NCBI RefSeq assembly: GCF_003018115.1
Contig: NZ_CP027457.1
Source of the DNA: Escherichia coli
Lineage (GTDB): Bacteria > Pseudomonadota > Gammaproteobacteria > Enterobacterales > Enterobacteriaceae
Length of the DNA stretch: 64,000 nucleotides
Strand: one strand, 5' to 3'
Shown here: in pieces, positions 4,540-39,753 of the stretch
Layout: each line of letters starts with the position of its first letter
How positions within the stretch are numbered: the stretch's first letter is position 1
The notes under the pieces: generated by a model
The model's input: the letters and a program-made list of their open reading frames with translations, nothing else
What the model was told of the DNA's origin: nothing
The model's database searches: none
Made by a program: the position numbers and the translations under genes

Positions 4540-5529
4540 TTAGCCGCCAATGTACGATAAGTTTTGCGTAATACCGGTGTTGTTTTGATGCAGGAAATGG
4601 GTCTGTTTCTTCTCCCGCAGCGCCGCTGAAATACGCGCTTCCAGCGCCTGTTGCTGGGCATCGTCTTCCAGCAGATCGCGCAGGTTAACACCGCCTTCAC
4701 CAAACAGGCAGAGATGGAGTTTACCAATGGAGGAAACGCGCAGACGGTTGCAAGTGGCGCAGAAGTCTTTTTCATACGGCATGATAAGGCCAATCTCTCC
4801 GGCGTAATCCGGATGACAAAAGACTTGCGCGGGACCGTCGCTGCGTTGACGTAATTGGTGGATCCAGCCGCGACGCAGTAGCTCGTCACGCAGAACCTGA
4901 CCAGAGATGTGATGCTTACGGAAGAGCTCGCTGCCCTCGCCCGTTTCCATCAGTTCGATGAAACGCAGCTGGATGGGACGATGCTGGATCCAGTTCAGAA
5001 AGGTGTCGAGCTGGTGATGATTAACATCACGCATCAGCACTGTATTGACTTTGACCTTCTCAAAACCGGCCTCAAATGCAGCATCAATCCCCGCCATGAC
5101 CTGGTTGAATTTATCCTGCCCGGTAATAGCGTGAAACTGGCGGGCGTCCAGACTGTCGACACTGACGTTGATGCCAGTAAGTCCAGCATCGCGCCAGTTC
5201 GCCACATCGCGTTCCAGACGGTAACCATTGGTGGTGACCGCAATCTGGCGGATAGCGTCGTTTTCTCGCACAGCGGCGATGATATCGGTAAAGTCGCGGC
5301 GTAAAGACGGCTCACCGCCTGTCAGGCGCACTTTTTCGGTGCCCAGACTGGCGAAGGCGCGCGTAACCCGGCGAATTTCATCGACGGTCAGAAAGCCTTT
5401 ATTGGTGACGCCGCTCGGTTTGTAGCCATCCGGCAGGCAGTAGGTGCAACGAAAGTTACACACATCGGTAATCGACAGGCGCAAGTAGTAAAACTTACGC
5501 GCAAATGCATCAGTCAGTTGTGAAGCCAT
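4540..5529 (-). CDS. moaA: GTP 3',8-cyclase MoaA (radical SAM)
   Basis: Translation from [31 protein letters not shown] (CxxxCxxC radical SAM motif); 329 aa. Confidence 0.92.
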
Positions 5530-5534
5530 GTACA

Positions 5535-5680
5535 CCTTTCCAGATACGGGAGGCGAAGTCATTTCTTCCTTCGCCCTGGTGGCAATCTTTACGAGCATTG
5601 TCACGGCCAAAGCACCGTATCAGTTGACCCAGGTGCAGAGGCTAGAGTGTTTAGTGGTTAAGCCGATACTAGCGTGTAAA
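5535..5680 (-). ncRNA. Probable molybdenum cofactor (Moco) riboswitch in the moaA leader
   Basis: Position only: structured 5' UTR immediately upstream of moaA, where E. coli carries the Moco RNA motif; boundaries approximate. Confidence 0.4.
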
Positions 5681-33715: not shown

Positions 33716-34181
33716 GGTTGAATAGCTCCTTGATACGAGAGCGCCGCTTATCGCGATCTCCCTTATCAGGTGTCACGTCTTCAACTTGCGACTGCTCTTT
33801 GAGGCCCAAATCACGGGCGATGATGTTAGCGTTGAGAAGGTCAGCGGCTGCGCCAGAGAATTTCTGGTCGTAGATGACCTGCTCTGCTCGCGTAACGACT
33901 TCAGATAAATCTTCTCGCAGGCGATATGTGCGCCATGTTTCAAGCGTCACATCAATGAACAGAGTGAGGCCGGTGATGGTCATCGCTCGCATCTTGGCGA
34001 TAGGCTCTTGCATCACTTCCCCCTGATACGAGAACGCCTTCATCTCCCATAGCGGGTTAGCTTCCACCCACTCGAAGTATTCACAACAAGCAGCCCACAG
34101 CGCCTCAGGCGATTCGAATTTAGGGTTTCGCCCATGACTACTGCGGGCCTCCCAAAATCGGTTGCCCTTTGGTGCTGCCAT
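33693..34181 (-). CDS. Terminase small subunit, P22 gp3-like
   Basis: 162-aa translation [50 protein letters not shown]... Confidence 0.92.
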
Positions 34182-34260
34182 ATTGATTATTTCCCTTCTG
34201 CTTGCTTATCCCATTCATCGCGGAATTTGGATGGGTTGTCGAAACCTTGAGTTGCCATGA

Positions 34261-34503
34261 TTATGCTCCGGTGGTGAACAGGTCTAACACTTCCTTCGAT
34301 TTACGTACCGCTTCGATAGTGCGGGTCGTGATATCTGAATTAGCGCCGCCTGACTGGAAGTGAATTTTGAATAGCTCAAGCTTCAGCTCGTCAGTGCCAA
34401 TGAACTGAAATGCTTCTTCTGCGGCTGCGTTCTGGTTCATGACCAGTTTGTAAATCTCTAACTGGAATTTCTGTTCTTCAGTCATGGGAATAATCTCTGC
34501 CAT
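34261..34503 (-). CDS. Hypothetical 80-aa protein upstream of terminase (P22 ORF80-like position)
   Basis: ORF in the late operon between rha and the small terminase gene. Confidence 0.5.
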   Translation of the reverse strand: MAEIIPMTEEQKFQLEIYKLVMNQNAAAEEAFQFIGTDELKLELFKIHFQSGGANSDITTRTIEAVRKSKEVLDLFTTGA

Positions 34504-34712
34504 TGTTGGCTCCGTTTATCCGTTAAAAGGGATATCAGTTAAGTTATCCCGTGCAGGGTATAAGCTATTGTCGAGACCACTCATTGAATGGTCTCTCCAT
34601 CAGTCCGCCACCACAAAGAATCTTTTTTGCCATAAGGCAGGAGGTTCATCTTTCAGTGGCTGCCAGTGTTATTTCCCCACTTACTGGCTTGGGTTGTTTC
34701 GTGGTACTGCCG

Positions 34713-35255
34713 TTAATTGGTGAGTCCGGGGATTACGGTTTGCCCGTGCTGTTCAAGGCGTTCAATTCTCGCCAGTAGCTGAGGCTTCTTAATTTTTCCC
34801 CAGCGATTAAGCAGGCGGCCTGACATGCTGGCAACATCCTTCTCTTTCATGTACTCCAGCATTACGGCATTTCTCTCTTCTTCAAATTGACGATGACCAA
34901 CCTGAAGCATGGCGTACATCCAGTTGAATGCGTTGATGTAAGCAATTTTGATACGCATTGCTTCTTTTTTGGTGTAGGACATAACCAAAAGCATCAACCC
35001 ATCCTTACGTAGCCGATAGAATTTTTGCGGCTTACCATTCTGTAACTCATTGTTTTTATAGCAAAGCTCAAAGTTGAGCTTTGTATCAAACTCAGGAGGG
35101 CAAGCTTCTATGGTTCGCTCAATGTCACGGACTACGTTCTTCGGCAGCTTTCCAAATGCTTTTGCCACCATAAAAGAATCTGTAACCGGATCGTTGTTTG
35201 CTACAAAAATTAGGTCTCTGAAATCTATATCGTTAACAACGGTTGGGTAGTTCAT
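34713..35255 (-). CDS. rha: Rha family phage regulatory protein
   Basis: N-terminal ...VTDSFMVAKAFGKLPKNVVRDIERTIE... typical of Rha domain; position after the lysis genes as in P22. Confidence 0.65.
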   Translation of the reverse strand: MNYPTVVNDIDFRDLIFVANNDPVTDSFMVAKAFGKLPKNVVRDIERTIEACPPEFDTKLNFELCYKNNELQNGKPQKFYRLRKDGLMLLVMSYTKKEAMRIKIAYINAFNWMYAMLQVGHRQFEEERNAVMLEYMKEKDVASMSGRLLNRWGKIKKPQLLARIERLEQHGQTVIPGLTN

Positions 35256-35601
35256 TGCGTCTTTACCTTTTAGAAAGATGAGCCTGTTCGCACAGAAAAG
35301 CCGTCCCCGAGATGGTCGCCACCATATACGGCAATTCTCAGGCTCAGCTTTCTGAAAGACTCGGGATTGTTACGCGCTGCGATGCGCGGTTTACTGCAGA
35401 TGTAAAAAAGCCCCGCTACTGCGAGGCTAAATCCTGGTGTTTGTGATGACTGGCCCTTATCTCAACGCAGCCCCTTACCGCGCGCCAGATGCTCAATATC
35501 AAGCATCAGCAATGAGATGTTTAATCTGGATTCACTCCAGAAGTGATCACCACCCTGTCTACAGAGCCAGATGTGAAGGATGATGAGTAGAATTATCGCT
35601 A

Positions 35602-36039
35602 TCATCGAAGGCATTGCGTCCTGATGTATTCCTGCAGGTAGTTAACCTGCGCGGTTATCCTGTCGATTCCACTTCGGAGACGGTAATAATTGAGTTCAGC
35701 ATCTGCTGTAAGTCTTGGGCTTTCTCCATCGCCCATGCTGCTGGCTCCGGTCGTTGACTTTGCACAGGTGGCGGAGACTTGCAGGCGCTTACGACCAACA
35801 GAAACATCAGCACGGAGACTTTCGATAGTCGCGTTAGCATCAGCAAGCTCCTTTGTGTATCTGGCGTCGAGTTCTGCTACATCACGTTGACGCTTCTGCA
35901 TATCAGCGATGATGGATGTGGCTTTGTCGCGCTGGTCTTTATAGGCGATGGCGTTATCACGGTAATGATTAACAGCCCATGACAGGCAGACGATGATGCA
36001 GATAACCAGAGAGGAGATAATCGCGGTTACTCTGCTCAT
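35602..36039 (-). CDS. Rz: Spanin inner-membrane subunit Rz (lambda-type)
   Basis: Translation [34 protein letters not shown]... nearly identical to lambda Rz N-terminus. Confidence 0.9.
35655..35846 (-). CDS. Rz1: Spanin outer-membrane lipoprotein subunit Rz1, embedded in Rz in another frame
   Basis: Embedded ORF with lipobox VVSAC and proline-rich segment; start approximate. Confidence 0.7.
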
Positions 36040-36512
36040 ACCTCAATCTCTCTGACCGTTCCACCTGCTTCTTTGAATTTTGCAATCAGGCTGTCTGCCT
36101 TATGCTCGAACTGACCATAACCAGCCCCCGGCAGTGAAGCCCAGATATTGCTGCAACGGTAGATAGCCTGACGAATATCGCCGCGATCAATCATCGGTAA
36201 AGCGCCACGCTCTTTAATCTGCTGCAGCGCAACAGCATCCTGGCTTTTCGGAGAGAAGTCTTTCAGGCCAAGCTGCTTACGGTAGGCATCCCACCAACGG
36301 GAAAGAAGCTGGTAACGTCCAGCGGCTGTTGATTTGAGTTTGGGGTTTAGCGTGACAAGTTTGCGAGGGTGATCGGAGTAATCAGTGAATAGCTCTCCGC
36401 CAACAATGACGTCATAACCATGATTTCTGGTTTTCTGACGTCCGTTATCAGTTCCCTCTGACCACGCCAGCATATCGAGGAACGCCTTACGTTGATTATT
36501 GATTTCCACCAT
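36036..36512 (-). CDS. R: Endolysin R (lytic transglycosylase, lambda-type)
   Basis: 158-aa translation [49 protein letters not shown]... matches lambda R. Confidence 0.95.
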
Positions 36513-36819
36513 CTTCTACTCCGGCTTTTTTAGCAGCGAAGCGTTTGATAAGCGAACCAATCGAGTCAGTACCGATGTAGCCGATGAACACGCTCGTTAT
36601 ATAAGCGAGATTGCTACTTAGTCCGGCGAAGTCGAGAAGGTCACGAATGAACCAGGCGATAATGGCGCACATCGTTGCGTCGATTACTGTTTTTGTAAAC
36701 GCACCGCCATTATATCTGCCGCGAAGGTACGCCATTGCAAACGCAAGGATTGCCCCGATGCCTTGTTCCTTTGCCGCTAGAATGGCGGCTAACAGGTCAT
36801 GTTTTTCTGGCATCTTCAT
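36496..36819 (-). CDS. S: Holin/antiholin S (lambda-type, dual start)
   Basis: 107-aa translation [41 protein letters not shown]... matches lambda S. Confidence 0.95.
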
Positions 36820-37215
36820 GTCTTACCCCCAATAAGGGGATTTGCTCTATTTAATTAGGAATAAGGTCGATTACTGATAGAACAAATCCTGGCTACTGTG
36901 TTTAGTAATCAGATTTGTTCGTGACCGATATGCACGGGCAAAACGGCAGGAGGTTGTTAGCGCAGCCTCTTGCCACCCGCTTTCACGAAGGTCATGTGTA
37001 GAAGGCCGCAGCGTAACTATCACTAATGAATTCAGGACAGCCAGTGGCTACGGCTCAGTTTGGGTTGTGCTGTTGCTGGGCGGCGATGACGCCTGTACGC
37101 ATTTGGTGATCCGGTTCTGCTTCCGGTATTCGCTTAATTCAGCACAACGGAAAGAGCACTGACTAACCAGGCTCGCCGACTCTTCACGATTATCGACTCA
37201 ATGCTCTTACCTGCT

Positions 37216-37418
37216 GTGCAGATATAAAAAATCCCGAAACCGTTATGCAGGCTCTAACTATTACCTGCGAACTGTTTCGGGATTGCATTTTGCAGACCTC
37301 TCAGCCTGCGATGGTTGGAGTTCCAGACGATACGTCGAAGTGACCAACTAGGCGGAATCGGTAGTAAGCGTCGCCTCTTTTTATCTCACTACCACAACGA
37401 GCGAATTAACCCATCGTT
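37216..37418 (-). ncRNA. Lambda-type 6S RNA (pR' leader transcript ending at tR')
   Basis: Region collinear with the lambda pR'-tR' leader; tR' hairpin and T-tract at about 37216-37245; boundaries approximate. Confidence 0.6.
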
Positions 37419-37424
37419 GGGTCA

Positions 37425-37453
37425 AATTTACCCAACTTTATTCAATAAGTCAA
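37425..37453 (-). promoter_or_regulatory. Late promoter pR' with overlapping qut site
   Basis: Minus-strand -35 TTGACT (37448-37453), 17-bp spacer, -10 TAAATT (37425-37430); matches lambda pR'. Confidence 0.8.
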
Positions 37454-37495
37454 TATTATGCCGTTAATATGTTGCCATCCGTGGCAATCATGCTG

Positions 37496-38119
37496 CTAAC
37501 GTGTGACCGCGTTAAAAATGTTGTCTGCGATTGACTCTTCCTTGTGGCATTGCACCACCAGAGCGTCATACAGCGGCTTAACAGTGCGTGACCAGGTGGG
37601 TTGGGTAAGGTTTGGGATTAGCATCGTCACAGCGCGATATGCGGCGCTTGCTGGCATCCTTGAATAACCGACGCCTTTGCATCTTCCGCACTCTTTCTCG
37701 ACAACTCTCCCCCACTGCTCTGTTTTTGCTATATCAACCGCACGGCCTGTACCGTGGCAATCTCTGCATCTTGCGCCCGGCGTCGCGGCACTACGGCAAT
37801 AATCCGCATAAGCGAATGTTGCGAGCACTTGCAGCACCTTTGCCTTAGTATTTCCTTCAAGCTTTGCCACACCACGGTATTTCCCCGATACCTTGTGTGC
37901 AAATTGCATCAGATAGTTGATAGCCTTTTGTTTGTCGTTCTGGCTGAGTTCGTGCTTACCACAGAATGCAGCCATGCCGAATCCGGCTTGTGATTGCGCC
38001 ATCCCCATAGCAGCCATCACATCAGTACCGGAAAGAGAGTCAGAAGCCGTGGCCCGTGGTGAGTCGCTCATCATCGGGCTTTTTGGCGAATGAAATTTAG
38101 CTACGCTTTCGAGTCTCAT
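37496..38119 (-). CDS. Q: Late gene antiterminator Q (lambda-type)
   Basis: 207-aa translation MRLESVAKFHSPKSPMMSDSPRATASDSLSGTDVMAAMGMAQSQAGF... matches lambda Q. Confidence 0.95.
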   Translation of the reverse strand: MRLESVAKFHSPKSPMMSDSPRATASDSLSGTDVMAAMGMAQSQAGFGMAAFCGKHELSQNDKQKAINYLMQFAHKVSGKYRGVAKLEGNTKAKVLQVLATFAYADYCRSAATPGARCRDCHGTGRAVDIAKTEQWGRVVEKECGRCKGVGYSRMPASAAYRAVTMLIPNLTQPTWSRTVKPLYDALVVQCHKEESIADNIFNAVTR

Positions 38120-38304
38120 GGTCTTCCCCTCTTGCCCTGTTTGACCATCAGGACGCCGTTAACTATTACGTGACGCTCGCCTTTGCTGTCTCGGTTGTAC
38201 TTGAGCACTGTTCCTCTTGCGCAGGAAAGCATCCTCGCCACTTCGGTCTGATTGCCTCGTGTCTGGATAAGAAGCTCTGGTATCGTTTGAATTGTGGCGT
38301 TCAT
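38116..38304 (-). CDS. ninH: NinH-like protein
   Basis: 62-aa translation with ...YGNQTEVARMLSCARGTV... resembling lambda NinH. Confidence 0.7.
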   Translation of the reverse strand: MNATIQTIPELLIQTRGNQTEVARMLSCARGTVLKYNRDSKGERHVIVNGVLMVKQGKRGRP

Positions 38305-38663
38305 ACGTTCTCCAGTTCGGTGATTTTTATTCCAAGCCTTCCGCCTGGTACTTTCACACCACGAATTACGCGAATGTCATCGAATTGCTCGTCGTCTTCC
38401 GCAAATCCGGCGTGGATAAGGGAGTCGAGTAAACCCTTCAGGATGTTATCGAGGTCGCGGCGGCGGGAGTCTGGAACGTCTGCGATGACTTTGATGCGGA
38501 GTCGTGATTTGGTGAAAATATCTAACTTGAGTTGGCGGATGATTTGCTGAACGTCTTTTCGGTATTTCTGGCCTTTATCGCTGATGTAGTATTGGCTTCC
38601 CCGTCTTCGCCAGTAGGTATTCACCGACGGCGGGTATGGAAGCACAAACCGATATTCATTCAT
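38301..38663 (-). CDS. rusA: Holliday junction resolvase RusA-like
   Basis: 120 aa; motifs LPYPPSVN...DVPDSRRRDLDN... typical of RusA. Confidence 0.8.
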   Translation of the reverse strand: MNEYRFVLPYPPSVNTYWRRRGSQYYISDKGQKYRKDVQQIIRQLKLDIFTKSRLRIKVIADVPDSRRRDLDNILKGLLDSLIHAGFAEDDEQFDDIRVIRGVKVPGGRLGIKITELENV

Positions 38664-39387: not shown

Positions 39388-39753
39388 TTATTGGATTCTC
39401 TGCATCATGAGAAAGACAATCATGGCGGCGCGGAGGGGATTTTCATGTATAACTCGCTTAGATTTACAGTAGGCCACACCGCGTGCACCCCACTCGTCTT
39501 CATCGAGATTGATAATGCTAATCCTGTATTTTTCAATAATCGGCCATGCGTCTGCTGGGTTTGCGCATGGGTTAAAGGATCCGCGCTCAACTTCTACTTC
39601 AACTGCGTCTCCGTTTACAATGTCTCCCTCAAATGAGACAAACACCATATCGCCATTCTCACCTTCTTTGTAATCCGGTGATCCGTTATGAATGGCTTCG
39701 AATACCGCCACGTTAATTTCAAAATCACTTAACTGTGAATAATCCATTGTCAT
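39388..39753 (-). CDS. Hypothetical acidic nin-region protein
   Basis: About 121-aa ORF; start approximate. Confidence 0.4.

Follow-up and report, generated by a model that had tools for sequence, protein, structure and literature searches.

A conserved RNA leader pairing the Shine-Dalgarno sequence of rha in the late operon of an Escherichia coli prophage

The question raised by this locus is what fills the space between the lysis gene Rz and the gene rha in the late operon of a prophage, found in a window (the whole stretch of DNA analyzed) of 64,000 nucleotides from Escherichia coli (assembly GCF_003018115.1, contig NZ_CP027457.1). The late genes of this prophage are carried by the minus strand, and the space, as given by the coordinates of the open reading frames (ORFs) on that strand, is real, measures 346 bp and extends over positions 35256-35601. 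The initial annotation regarded it as non-coding and considered it to be either a recombination scar or the site of a small RNA or a regulatory structure. The gap is neither empty nor a scar. It consists of three parts, namely a small ORF, an intrinsic terminator and a structured leader of 143 nt, in whose conserved fold the Shine-Dalgarno sequence (SD) of rha is paired. Taken together, these parts would form a three-part punctuation which separates the lysis cassette from the next late gene.

Composition of the interval

In BLAST searches, the interval and both of its flanks were found to be 98-99% identical, over 100% of the length, to the P22-like phages vB_EcoP-720R6, Sf101 and CUS-3, and the interval is ordinary sequence of that lineage. 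Other phages match in part. In epsilon34, g341c and HK620 the match is present only from ~35251 upward, and a GIY-YIG-type or KilA-N gene replaces rha. For mEp460, Ayreon and Kapi1 it is present only from 35403-35405 upward, and for Sf6 and mEp213 only from ~35440 upward. A separate large set of phages matches 35257-35412/35427 alone and neither flank. It comprises phi80, HK106, HK639, SPN3UB and many Stx1/Stx2 phages, as well as phages of Klebsiella, Hafnia, Enterobacter, Providencia and 'Actinobacillus'. Homology from phage to phage stops at or near the rha start codon. Since the matches break at internal points, the gap is built of separately inherited pieces, of which the rha-proximal one is conserved on its own.

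The proposed junction between a lambda-type lysis module and P22-type genes was thus retained in part: the interval is normal for the P22-like lineage, but mosaic breakpoints do exist and lie at the internal part boundaries (~35251, 35403-35405 and 35440). The idea of a recombination scar found no support, as the sequence is intact, under structural selection and present in hundreds of phages, although it does mark an exchange hot spot for the downstream gene. Likewise, the transcribed strand is not devoid of a convincing ORF, since a 50-codon ORF (35462-35614, minus strand) matches phrog_11822 with E = 4e-38 and is annotated in relatives. The truly non-coding part of the gap covers ~206 bp (~35256-35461).

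Conserved structure of the leader RNA

The covariance model R1 identified a single copy of the leader in the window (cmsearch, 150.5 bits, E = 5e-38). The RNA of the minus strand that extends from 35395 to the ATG of rha has a minimum free energy of -49 kcal/mol. The following elements were assigned:

35253-35395, minus strand: conserved leader RNA of 143 nt, detected with covariance model R1 and ending with the rha ATG (35253-35255)
35373-35388, minus strand: P1, a GC hairpin (CGCGC AUCGCA GCGCG) with a 5-bp stem and a 6-nt loop
35360-35365, minus strand: 5′ strand of helix Ha (CCCGAG), directly 5′ of the anti-SD and pairing with 35306-35311
35339-35359, minus strand: 5′ strand of the basal stem (UCUUUCAGAAAGCUGAGCCUG), the first part of which is the anti-SD, with pairs verified base by base
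35294-35338, minus strand: upper arm with an upper helix of ~10 bp (AGAAUUGCCGU / ACGGCUUUUCU), the apical hairpin Hd and a 3′ bulge
35312-35325, minus strand: apical hairpin Hd (AUGGU GGCG ACCAU)
35306-35311, minus strand: 3′ bulge CUCGGG, which is the 3′ strand of Ha
35287-35293, minus strand: asymmetric, one-sided (3′) internal loop GUGCGAA, separating the basal stem from the upper helix
35266-35286, minus strand: 3′ strand of the basal stem (CAGGCUCAUCUUUCUAAAAGG), in which the rha SD is located
35266-35270, minus strand: SD of rha (AAAGG), in the 3′ strand of the basal stem

The long hairpin has a length of ~95 nt, and its 21-bp basal stem, formed by 35339-35359 with 35266-35286, contains two to three mismatches at conserved positions, e.g., C-A. 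The internal loop is kept in all variants as GUGAGA, GUGCGAA, GUGCGG or AUGCGG. The GC-rich inverted repeat quoted in the initial annotation is present at 35374-35389 on the plus strand and corresponds to the P1 hairpin, and the suggestion of a regulatory structure agrees with what was found: 143 nt of the gap are a conserved RNA fold with abundant compensatory changes, in which the rha SD is sequestered. A coding function of the leader itself was rejected because the variants differ by 1-nt indels and no in-frame start codon exists upstream of the rha ATG. Two ORFs on the plus strand (35312-35446 and 35437-35583) gave no significant family match (best E = 0.3); one of them is annotated in vB_EcoP-720R6.

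Leaders were collected by a pattern scan of viral contigs, which yielded 120 loci, and by a scan of one genome per species. Three alignments were evaluated: 68 distinct leaders aligned with MAFFT, 70 sequences of two leader subfamilies (the first leader type and a P22-type) fitted to the covariance model, and 25 diverse leaders analyzed with RNAalifold. In the MAFFT alignment 91.7% of the cells are paired, compared to 35-47% with a slid partner, and changes on both sides occur at 13 pairs, compared to two to six in the slid controls; none of 500 shuffles reached the observed values. With both subfamilies 91.6% of the cells pair (31-50% if slid), changes on both sides are found in 30 of the 38 pairs, and the covariation score is 0.39 vs. 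0.156 for shuffled data. RNAalifold recovered the same architecture de novo from a plain MAFFT alignment, with compensatory changes in 17 of 27 pairs.

Every helix contributes to this signal. In P1, all five pairs are changed on both sides in at least one of the 70 sequences, e.g., from GCGC/GCGC to GUGC/GCAC or GCGU/ACGC. The basal helix of the same alignment is 96% paired and shows compensatory changes in 12 of its 16 pairs, the SD:anti-SD pairs among those with such changes. Addition of the P22-type subfamily made helices covary which had previously been invariant through the search anchors. In the upper helix, seven of ten pairs covary once the P22-type leaders are included, its versions being AGAA..GCCG/CGGC..UUCU, AGGA..CCAG/CUGG..UCCU and AGGA..UCAG/CUGA..UCCU. 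Another example of covariation across the subfamilies is GAGCCUG/CAGGCUC vs. GAGCCGUUG/CAACGGUUC, and in Hd all four pairs covary. G-U pairs, which would be A-C mismatches on the other strand, are frequent, which favors a structure of the RNA of the late-transcript strand.

The helix Ha is formed by 6-7 nt located 5′ of the anti-SD, which are complementary to the bulge beside the apical hairpin. At least nine versions were found across the family, and all of them are complementary: CGAGAG/CUCUCG, CCCGAG/CUCGGG, CACCGA/UCGGUG, CCAAGAG/CUCUUGG, CACAGAA/UUCUGUG, CGUCGA/UCGACG, CUCAGAA/UUCUGAG, CACCGAA/UUCGGUG and CAAGAG/CUCUUG. Several of the versions are distinguished by clean compensatory double changes, e.g., CACAGAA/UUCUGUG from CUCAGAA/UUCUGAG. 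Since Ha crosses the long hairpin, it represents either an alternative fold or a pseudoknot. In a stack of ~30 bp, the 5′ strand of Ha is located directly at the base and the 3′ strand close to the top; on geometric grounds, Ha and the closed lower stem would be expected to exclude each other. If Ha is forced in a fold restricted to nested pairs, the energy is -36 kcal/mol vs. -49.7 kcal/mol, which is uninformative for a pseudoknot, and the energies of the component helices were therefore compared. They are -10.5 kcal/mol for the lower stem and -10.4 to -11.9 kcal/mol for Ha before loop penalty; the closed state and the Ha state are plausibly balanced in energy.

Probable translational control and alternative explanations

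Over 69 leaders, the SD core has a mean pairing probability of 0.82, and in 65 of them the value is at least 0.5. Variant SDs (UAGGA, UAAGG, AGGU, GAAGG) face matching anti-SDs. The leader has the form of an SD-sequestering leader: the SD is paired in the conserved fold, and this pairing is kept by covariation.

The leader is probably a cis-acting translational gate on the genes which lie behind it (cargo genes). As a 143-nt mRNA leader it would control the following gene, here rha. In the most stable fold, the lowest 11 bp of the long hairpin would lock the SD against the anti-SD, and rha translation would be off by default while transcription continues into the head genes. RNA polymerase modified by the antiterminator Q should also resist Rho, so that polarity on the head genes would not be expected from a cargo gene which is not translated. 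The SD would be opened by the formation of Ha, by a bound factor or by cleavage of the long duplex by RNase III, and candidate triggers are folding kinetics, a protein, RNase III and a ligand. Provided that the leader is a translational gate, the Ha pseudoknot can tentatively be taken as the 'on' conformer, which would draw the anti-SD away and free the SD.

Several points weigh against this interpretation. In the leader of the window, GUCUUU can also pair with AAAGAC in an alternative register, which reduces the pairing of the SD core in the ensemble to ~0.5-0.7. The alignment of 70 sequences was fitted to the model structure, which inflates its pair counts; this is mitigated by the results from the MAFFT alignment of 68 leaders and from RNAalifold. 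The leader sequences are related and recombine, and the shuffle statistics are consequently no true probabilities. A comparison of cognate and non-cognate Ha strands discriminated weakly (mean longest helix 6.0 vs. 4.8) because the versions share GC-rich cores; the support for Ha is therefore taken from the list of versions and the specific compensatory double changes and not from this statistic. Ha would need the lowest ~10 bp, i.e., the SD:anti-SD pairs, to be open, which is a geometric and not a computed estimate. The conservation of the primary sequence goes far beyond the requirements of a plain SD-masking hairpin, which hints at a binding partner or a further function. The gating function as such is deduced from sequence and predicted fold.

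A more far-reaching proposal is that the leader is a switch responding to a signal or factor, with the Ha pseudoknot and the SD-masking stem as its two states, and that a promoter-less cargo-slot system of lambdoid late operons has it as its constant 5′ end. The genes for Rha, KilA-N, Bro-N, ANT, HNH and T5orf172 proteins would then be swapped behind a shared RNA at several operon positions (behind the lysis genes, in the Q-holin interval and in the R-Rz interval) and be gated by a phage or host cue. We regard this proposal as speculative.

Among the alternatives, the one that survives best is a processing site for RNase III or another endonuclease, although it is unlikely as the sole explanation. 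A cut would separate the lysis mRNA from the downstream mRNA, leave a protective 3′ hairpin and free the SD of the cargo gene. The basal stem of ~21 bp with two to three conserved mismatches, the loop of 6-7 nt on its 3′ side and the upper helix of 10 bp provide what such a site should have, i.e., an interrupted duplex of at least ~20 bp with an asymmetric internal loop, and the conservation of the mismatch positions, e.g., C-A, fits as well; cleavage is predicted only. The strongly covarying Ha and P1 would, however, be left unexplained, and the 21-bp lower stem might remain annealed after a single nick. To our knowledge, MG1655 lacks the leader, so that RNase III target maps of E. coli K-12 are not usable here. 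Processing by RNase III is compatible with a translational gate, as the way in which the lock is opened. If the leader is such a gate, we judge an involvement of RNase III to be rather doubtful, and it would be compatible with Ha as the 'on' conformer.

Signals for RNase III in T7 (R0.3, R1.1 and others) and the site in the lambda N leader resemble the phage leader in being located between genes of a polycistronic mRNA and in having stems split by an asymmetric loop. In contrast to the T7 sites, the leader has a lower stem twice as long, contains an extra crossing helix and includes the SD, and it is known from a predicted fold. Another close analogue is provided by the homing endonuclease genes of T4, intron-encoded or free-standing (I-TevI, seg/mob), which are selfish or accessory genes in an essential phage transcription unit with the SD hidden in a hairpin, so that transcripts reading through into them yield little protein; the leader cargo likewise comprises HNH and GIY-YIG-like (T5orf172) genes. 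Hairpins sequestering the ribosome binding site before these T4 genes were reportedly described by Gott and co-workers in 1988 and by Gibb and Edgell in 2010. In T4 the lock is released by late transcripts which start within the hairpin, whereas no internal promoter was found in the leader, which moreover is one homologous family across many unrelated cargo genes and has Ha and P1 in addition.

In the rpsO leader, which binds S15, and in the leader of T4 gene 32, alternative 5′-leader folds with a pseudoknot beside the SD likewise decide on the initiation by ribosomes. However, the rpsO pseudoknot is the repressed form, whereas the phage leader would be 'on' in its pseudoknot state; the sequences are not similar, and S15 has no known counterpart for the phage leader. 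The T7 sites, rpsO and the T4 genes are analogues of the leader in function, and none of the systems is a homologue of it. A block of translation at the RNA level on an antirepressor-type gene of a temperate phage is also exerted by the c4 RNA of P1/P7 and the sar RNA of P22, but both act in trans as antisense RNAs and have promoters or processing of their own. At E ≤ 1, the leader region matched no family of Rfam, and hence no model of the c4 RNA, which we take to be RF01695.

A linker which acts at the DNA level, i.e., a homology patch for the swapping of cargo genes by homologous recombination without an RNA function, is very unlikely as the whole explanation. It would account for the homology breakpoints exactly at the leader ends, for the many different cargo genes behind the same leader and for the high conservation of the primary sequence, and the stretch 34504-34712 is also widely conserved, so that the flanks are constant on both sides. 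It does not account for compensatory double substitutions in every helix and in Ha, for G-U pairs tolerated on this strand only, for SD:anti-SD pairing retained even where the SD sequence differs, or for the constant strand and position relative to the start codon. Such structural features are unexpected for a mere homology patch, though both roles can coexist. Conserved 'linker' sequences between modules are said to have been noted by Clark and co-workers in 2001 for HK620.

It is highly improbable that the leader is a transcription attenuator, with the upper arm and UUUUCU as terminator and Ha as anti-terminator, by which read-through and not translation would be controlled. In one subfamily, CGGC and the subsequent UUUUCUGUG hardly vary, and Ha adjoins the 3′ strand of the upper helix, so that the two structures would compete. 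The U run itself, however, is paired with AGAA in the stable fold, a pairing which covaries (AGGA/UCCU in the P22-type), and a short stem would have to close a large loop. The upper arm is not among the calls of the terminator scan, essential head genes lie downstream, and Q-modified polymerase should ignore terminators anyway, as is established for lambdoid phages.

It is barely credible that the leader is a small RNA gene in its own right or gives rise to a small RNA of a 3′ untranslated region: prophage late regions do encode the Hfq-bound RNAs AgvB, AsxR and Pas (PMC4104026; bioRxiv 10.64898/2026.05.13.724894) and a terminator hairpin with a U tail is present at 35403-35428, but no promoter-like site was found on the minus strand within 34500-36500, the leader lacks a terminator of its own and runs into the rha start codon, and it matches neither AgvB (RF02702), AsxR (RF02703) and STnc100 (RF02076) nor any other Rfam family. 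The AgvB, AsxR and Pas RNAs are located 3′ of PR′ and upstream of the lysis genes (PMC4104026; bioRxiv 10.64898/2026.05.13.724894). The leader was rejected as a copy of any of them on account of its different location and the missing match.

A further candidate for control at this site is integration host factor (IHF). No match to its consensus WATCAANNNNTTR with at most one mismatch was found in 35256-35601; the nearest one is located inside rha (35043-35055). Sequences upstream of an IHF-regulated rha were reportedly discussed by Henthorn and Friedman in 1995.

Cargo genes, distribution and the other parts of the interval

The genes located behind the leader encode Rha (Phage_pRha, often with ORF11CD3), KilA-N (with ORF11CD3 or P63C), Bro-N and ANT proteins, as well as T5orf172/MUG113 proteins ('GIY-YIG' in RefSeq) and HNH_3 endonucleases. 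Homology of the leader always stops a few nt before the ATG of the next gene. The leader is always found in the late operon, on the same strand and at the same position relative to the start codon, and usually just after a terminator. In the nine annotated records that were checked, it directly follows the lysis cassette, which is its usual position. In the Klebsiella phage RothC (L281, 1197-1344) and the Escherichia phage CharmingMan (L283, 1195-1338) it is located between Q or tRNA genes and the holin gene, before an HNH or homing endonuclease gene. The Stx-type Escherichia phage Lys12581Vzw (NC_049917) has a second, diverged leader (L008, 2864-3005, minus strand) between the lysozyme gene R and ant, in addition to the one before its rha, and second copies were also found in four further loci (L133, L035, L017 and L068) before KilA-N and HNH genes. 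These varied positions (after the lysis cassette, between Q and holin, between R and ant) indicate that the leader is associated with a class of late-operon accessory genes and not with a single locus.

On the other side of rha, the 209 bp before the DUF2560 gene (34504-34712) match 201 phage records, including HK97, mEp234, HK140, P22 and ST64T, and are often unannotated. With this stretch, the variable gene slot has conserved non-coding sequence both before and after it. The slot of rha thus corresponds to a moron in being a variable gene between conserved neighbours. An own promoter, the other property of a moron, was not found, as a scan of the minus strand within 34500-36500 gave no sigma-70-like site; candidate -10 elements, compared by eye, are not conserved between the leader types.

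The first leader type matches 217 phage records and occurs in 916 of 5426 complete E. coli genomes, where an annotated feature never lies beneath it. The P22-type was found in 75 phage records and is present in 957 of these 5426 genomes, so that either subfamily occurs in ~17% of complete E. coli genomes. Carriers of the leader include P22, phi80, HK620 and Stx phages, those of the P22-type ES18, HK544, BTP1, the Stx2 phage 1717, RothC and CharmingMan. With one genome per species, the leader was found in Pantoea, Proteus, Providencia, Arsenophonus, Xenorhabdus, Rahnella, Brenneria, Symbiopectobacterium, Shimwellia, Pluralibacter, Buttiauxella, Leclercia, Enterobacter and Intestinirhabdus, i.e., across the Enterobacterales.

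Several annotated gene starts fall inside the leader. The diverged copy of P22 (NC_002371, 39500-39641) was detected with 57.9 bits by a covariance model from the 68-leader alignment, and the annotated GTG start of P22 rha (ORF201) at 39575 lies within it; similarity of ORF201 to the Rha of the window, as to other Rha proteins, starts at Met24, which has an SD of its own (GAAGG) 8 nt upstream. The corresponding stretch of P22 with the leader is 39500-39646 (L160, 1001-1147). In phi80, the annotated GTG start of rha is located 36 nt inside the leader (L005, 1497-1636), upstream of the conserved ATG. Annotated coding sequences (CDSs) for Rha and KilA-N in E. coli genomes overlap the P22-type leader match as well. 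The gene starts of P22 rha (ORF201), of phi80 rha and of many Rha/KilA-N CDSs from PGAP, annotated as starting within the leader, would be corrected accordingly.

The leader family appears to be undescribed, as it has no Rfam match, is never annotated as an RNA feature and was not found in the literature. Rfam 15 gave no match in 34000-38500 of the window (cmscan, E ≤ 1), nor over the leader variants of P22, a Stx phage, RothC, phi80 and Arsenophonus. A literature search, which also used sequence strings of the leader, revealed no description of it, and an earlier mention as conserved DNA is possible. At gathering thresholds, the whole window contained nothing but a Moco riboswitch (RF01055, 103 bits, 5517-5661, minus strand), an ordinary one in the host DNA flanking the prophage.

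If the proposed function is correct, P22, phi80, HK620 and Stx phages would carry a conserved regulatory RNA, each subfamily of which is present in about one sixth of the complete E. coli genomes. Such an RNA would account for the presence of potentially harmful nuclease and antirepressor-like genes in an essential late operon, with their translation locked and transcription by Q-modified polymerase ongoing. It would also offer a testable handle on the regulation of genes of the Rha, KilA-N and Ant type, whose part in host killing and in the cross-talk between lysis and lysogeny is little understood.

The other features of the interval and of its surroundings are:

37496-38119, minus strand: Q, in the late operon
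36496-36819, minus strand: S
36036-36512, minus strand: R
35602-36039, minus strand: Rz ORF
35655-35846, minus strand: Rz1, embedded in Rz
35462-35614, minus strand: small ORF of 50 codons (47 from Met4) from the ORF listing, overlapping the Rz stop
35403-35428, minus strand: intrinsic terminator from the terminator scan, AGCCUCGC AGUA GCGGGGCU followed by a U run
34713-35255, minus strand: rha ORF, the cargo gene behind the leader, with the Pfam domains Phage_pRha and ORF11CD3
34261-34503, minus strand: DUF2560 gene, downstream of rha and followed by the terminase genes

The hairpin at 35403-35428 fits the form of an intrinsic terminator, with transcript ending and read-through under Q as predictions. 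It consists of an 8-bp stem with six G-C pairs, a 4-nt loop and U6, and has an energy of -14.1 kcal/mol (z = -4.3; none of 200 shuffles was as stable). The homologous site is annotated as a terminator in epsilon34, phi80, HK106 and HK639. A hairpin with a T-run is present at the terminator site upstream of the leader of other phages in 76 of 86 distinct contexts. Its stems vary with the context and keep their complementarity (GCCUCGC/GCGGGGC, GCCUGAC/GUCGGGC, GCCAGC/GCUGGC and GCCCACG/CGUGGGC). Lambdoid Q-modified polymerase reads through terminators, so that this one would block non-late transcription only: it would be passed by the Q-modified late RNA polymerase and stop other transcription.

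Terminators within P22-like late operons have been reported in the genome paper on phage L, according to which their 'roles are not known' (bioRxiv 10.1101/2020.10.05.325894). The one at 35403-35428 is one of them, with the distinction that it is systematically paired with a following leader, as in the 76 of 86 contexts. In leaders of the Stx2/HK544 type (L170, L163, L167 and similar ones), P1 (AUGCGU ACCGCA ACGCAU) directly precedes a run of six to eight U, and P1 of these leaders may double as a terminator.

The small ORF starts 13 nt ahead of the Rz stop, with AGGA in front as read from the sequence, and its Met4 ATG (35603-35605) overlaps the Rz TGA as ATGA; some members of the family begin at Met4 and have 47 amino acids. 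It matches the phrog_11822 profile in full length (residues 1-50 of 50, E = 3.9e-38) and is annotated as a CDS in Sf101, epsilon34 and vB_EcoP-720R6, the counterpart in epsilon34 being gp67, which is annotated as similar to Sf6 gene 65. The family is narrow: its 66 clusters come almost exclusively from E. coli or Shigella, and it has no distant relatives. Among 20 DNA variants, ~20 non-synonymous and seven synonymous changes were counted, which is a roughly neutral ratio. Apart from one S3L change in the codons overlapping Rz, all amino acid changes are located after codon 19, and the hydrophobic N-terminus is otherwise invariant. A homologue in a Klebsiella phage, with 70% nucleotide identity, starts 2 nt past its Rz stop and retains MLILFILLSIWLCR, i.e., the hydrophobic N-terminus only, with an in-frame indel; it then diverges and stops early. 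The small ORF is probably a real gene for a small membrane peptide, and its translation would be coupled to that of Rz; the evidence is not decisive.

In the Klebsiella phage ST13-OXA48phi12.5 (L159), the 3′ end of the small ORF and the next 30 nt (GGUAAGGGGCUGCGUUGAGAUAAGGGCCAG), corresponding to 35429-35475 of the window, are similar at the DNA level past the earlier stop of that phage. A factor other than coding may conserve this stretch. Further upstream, ARAGORN predicted no tRNA gene in the whole window, including the 676 bp between Q and S (36820-37495), the place where vB_EcoP-720R6 has tRNA-Thr and tRNA-Asn.

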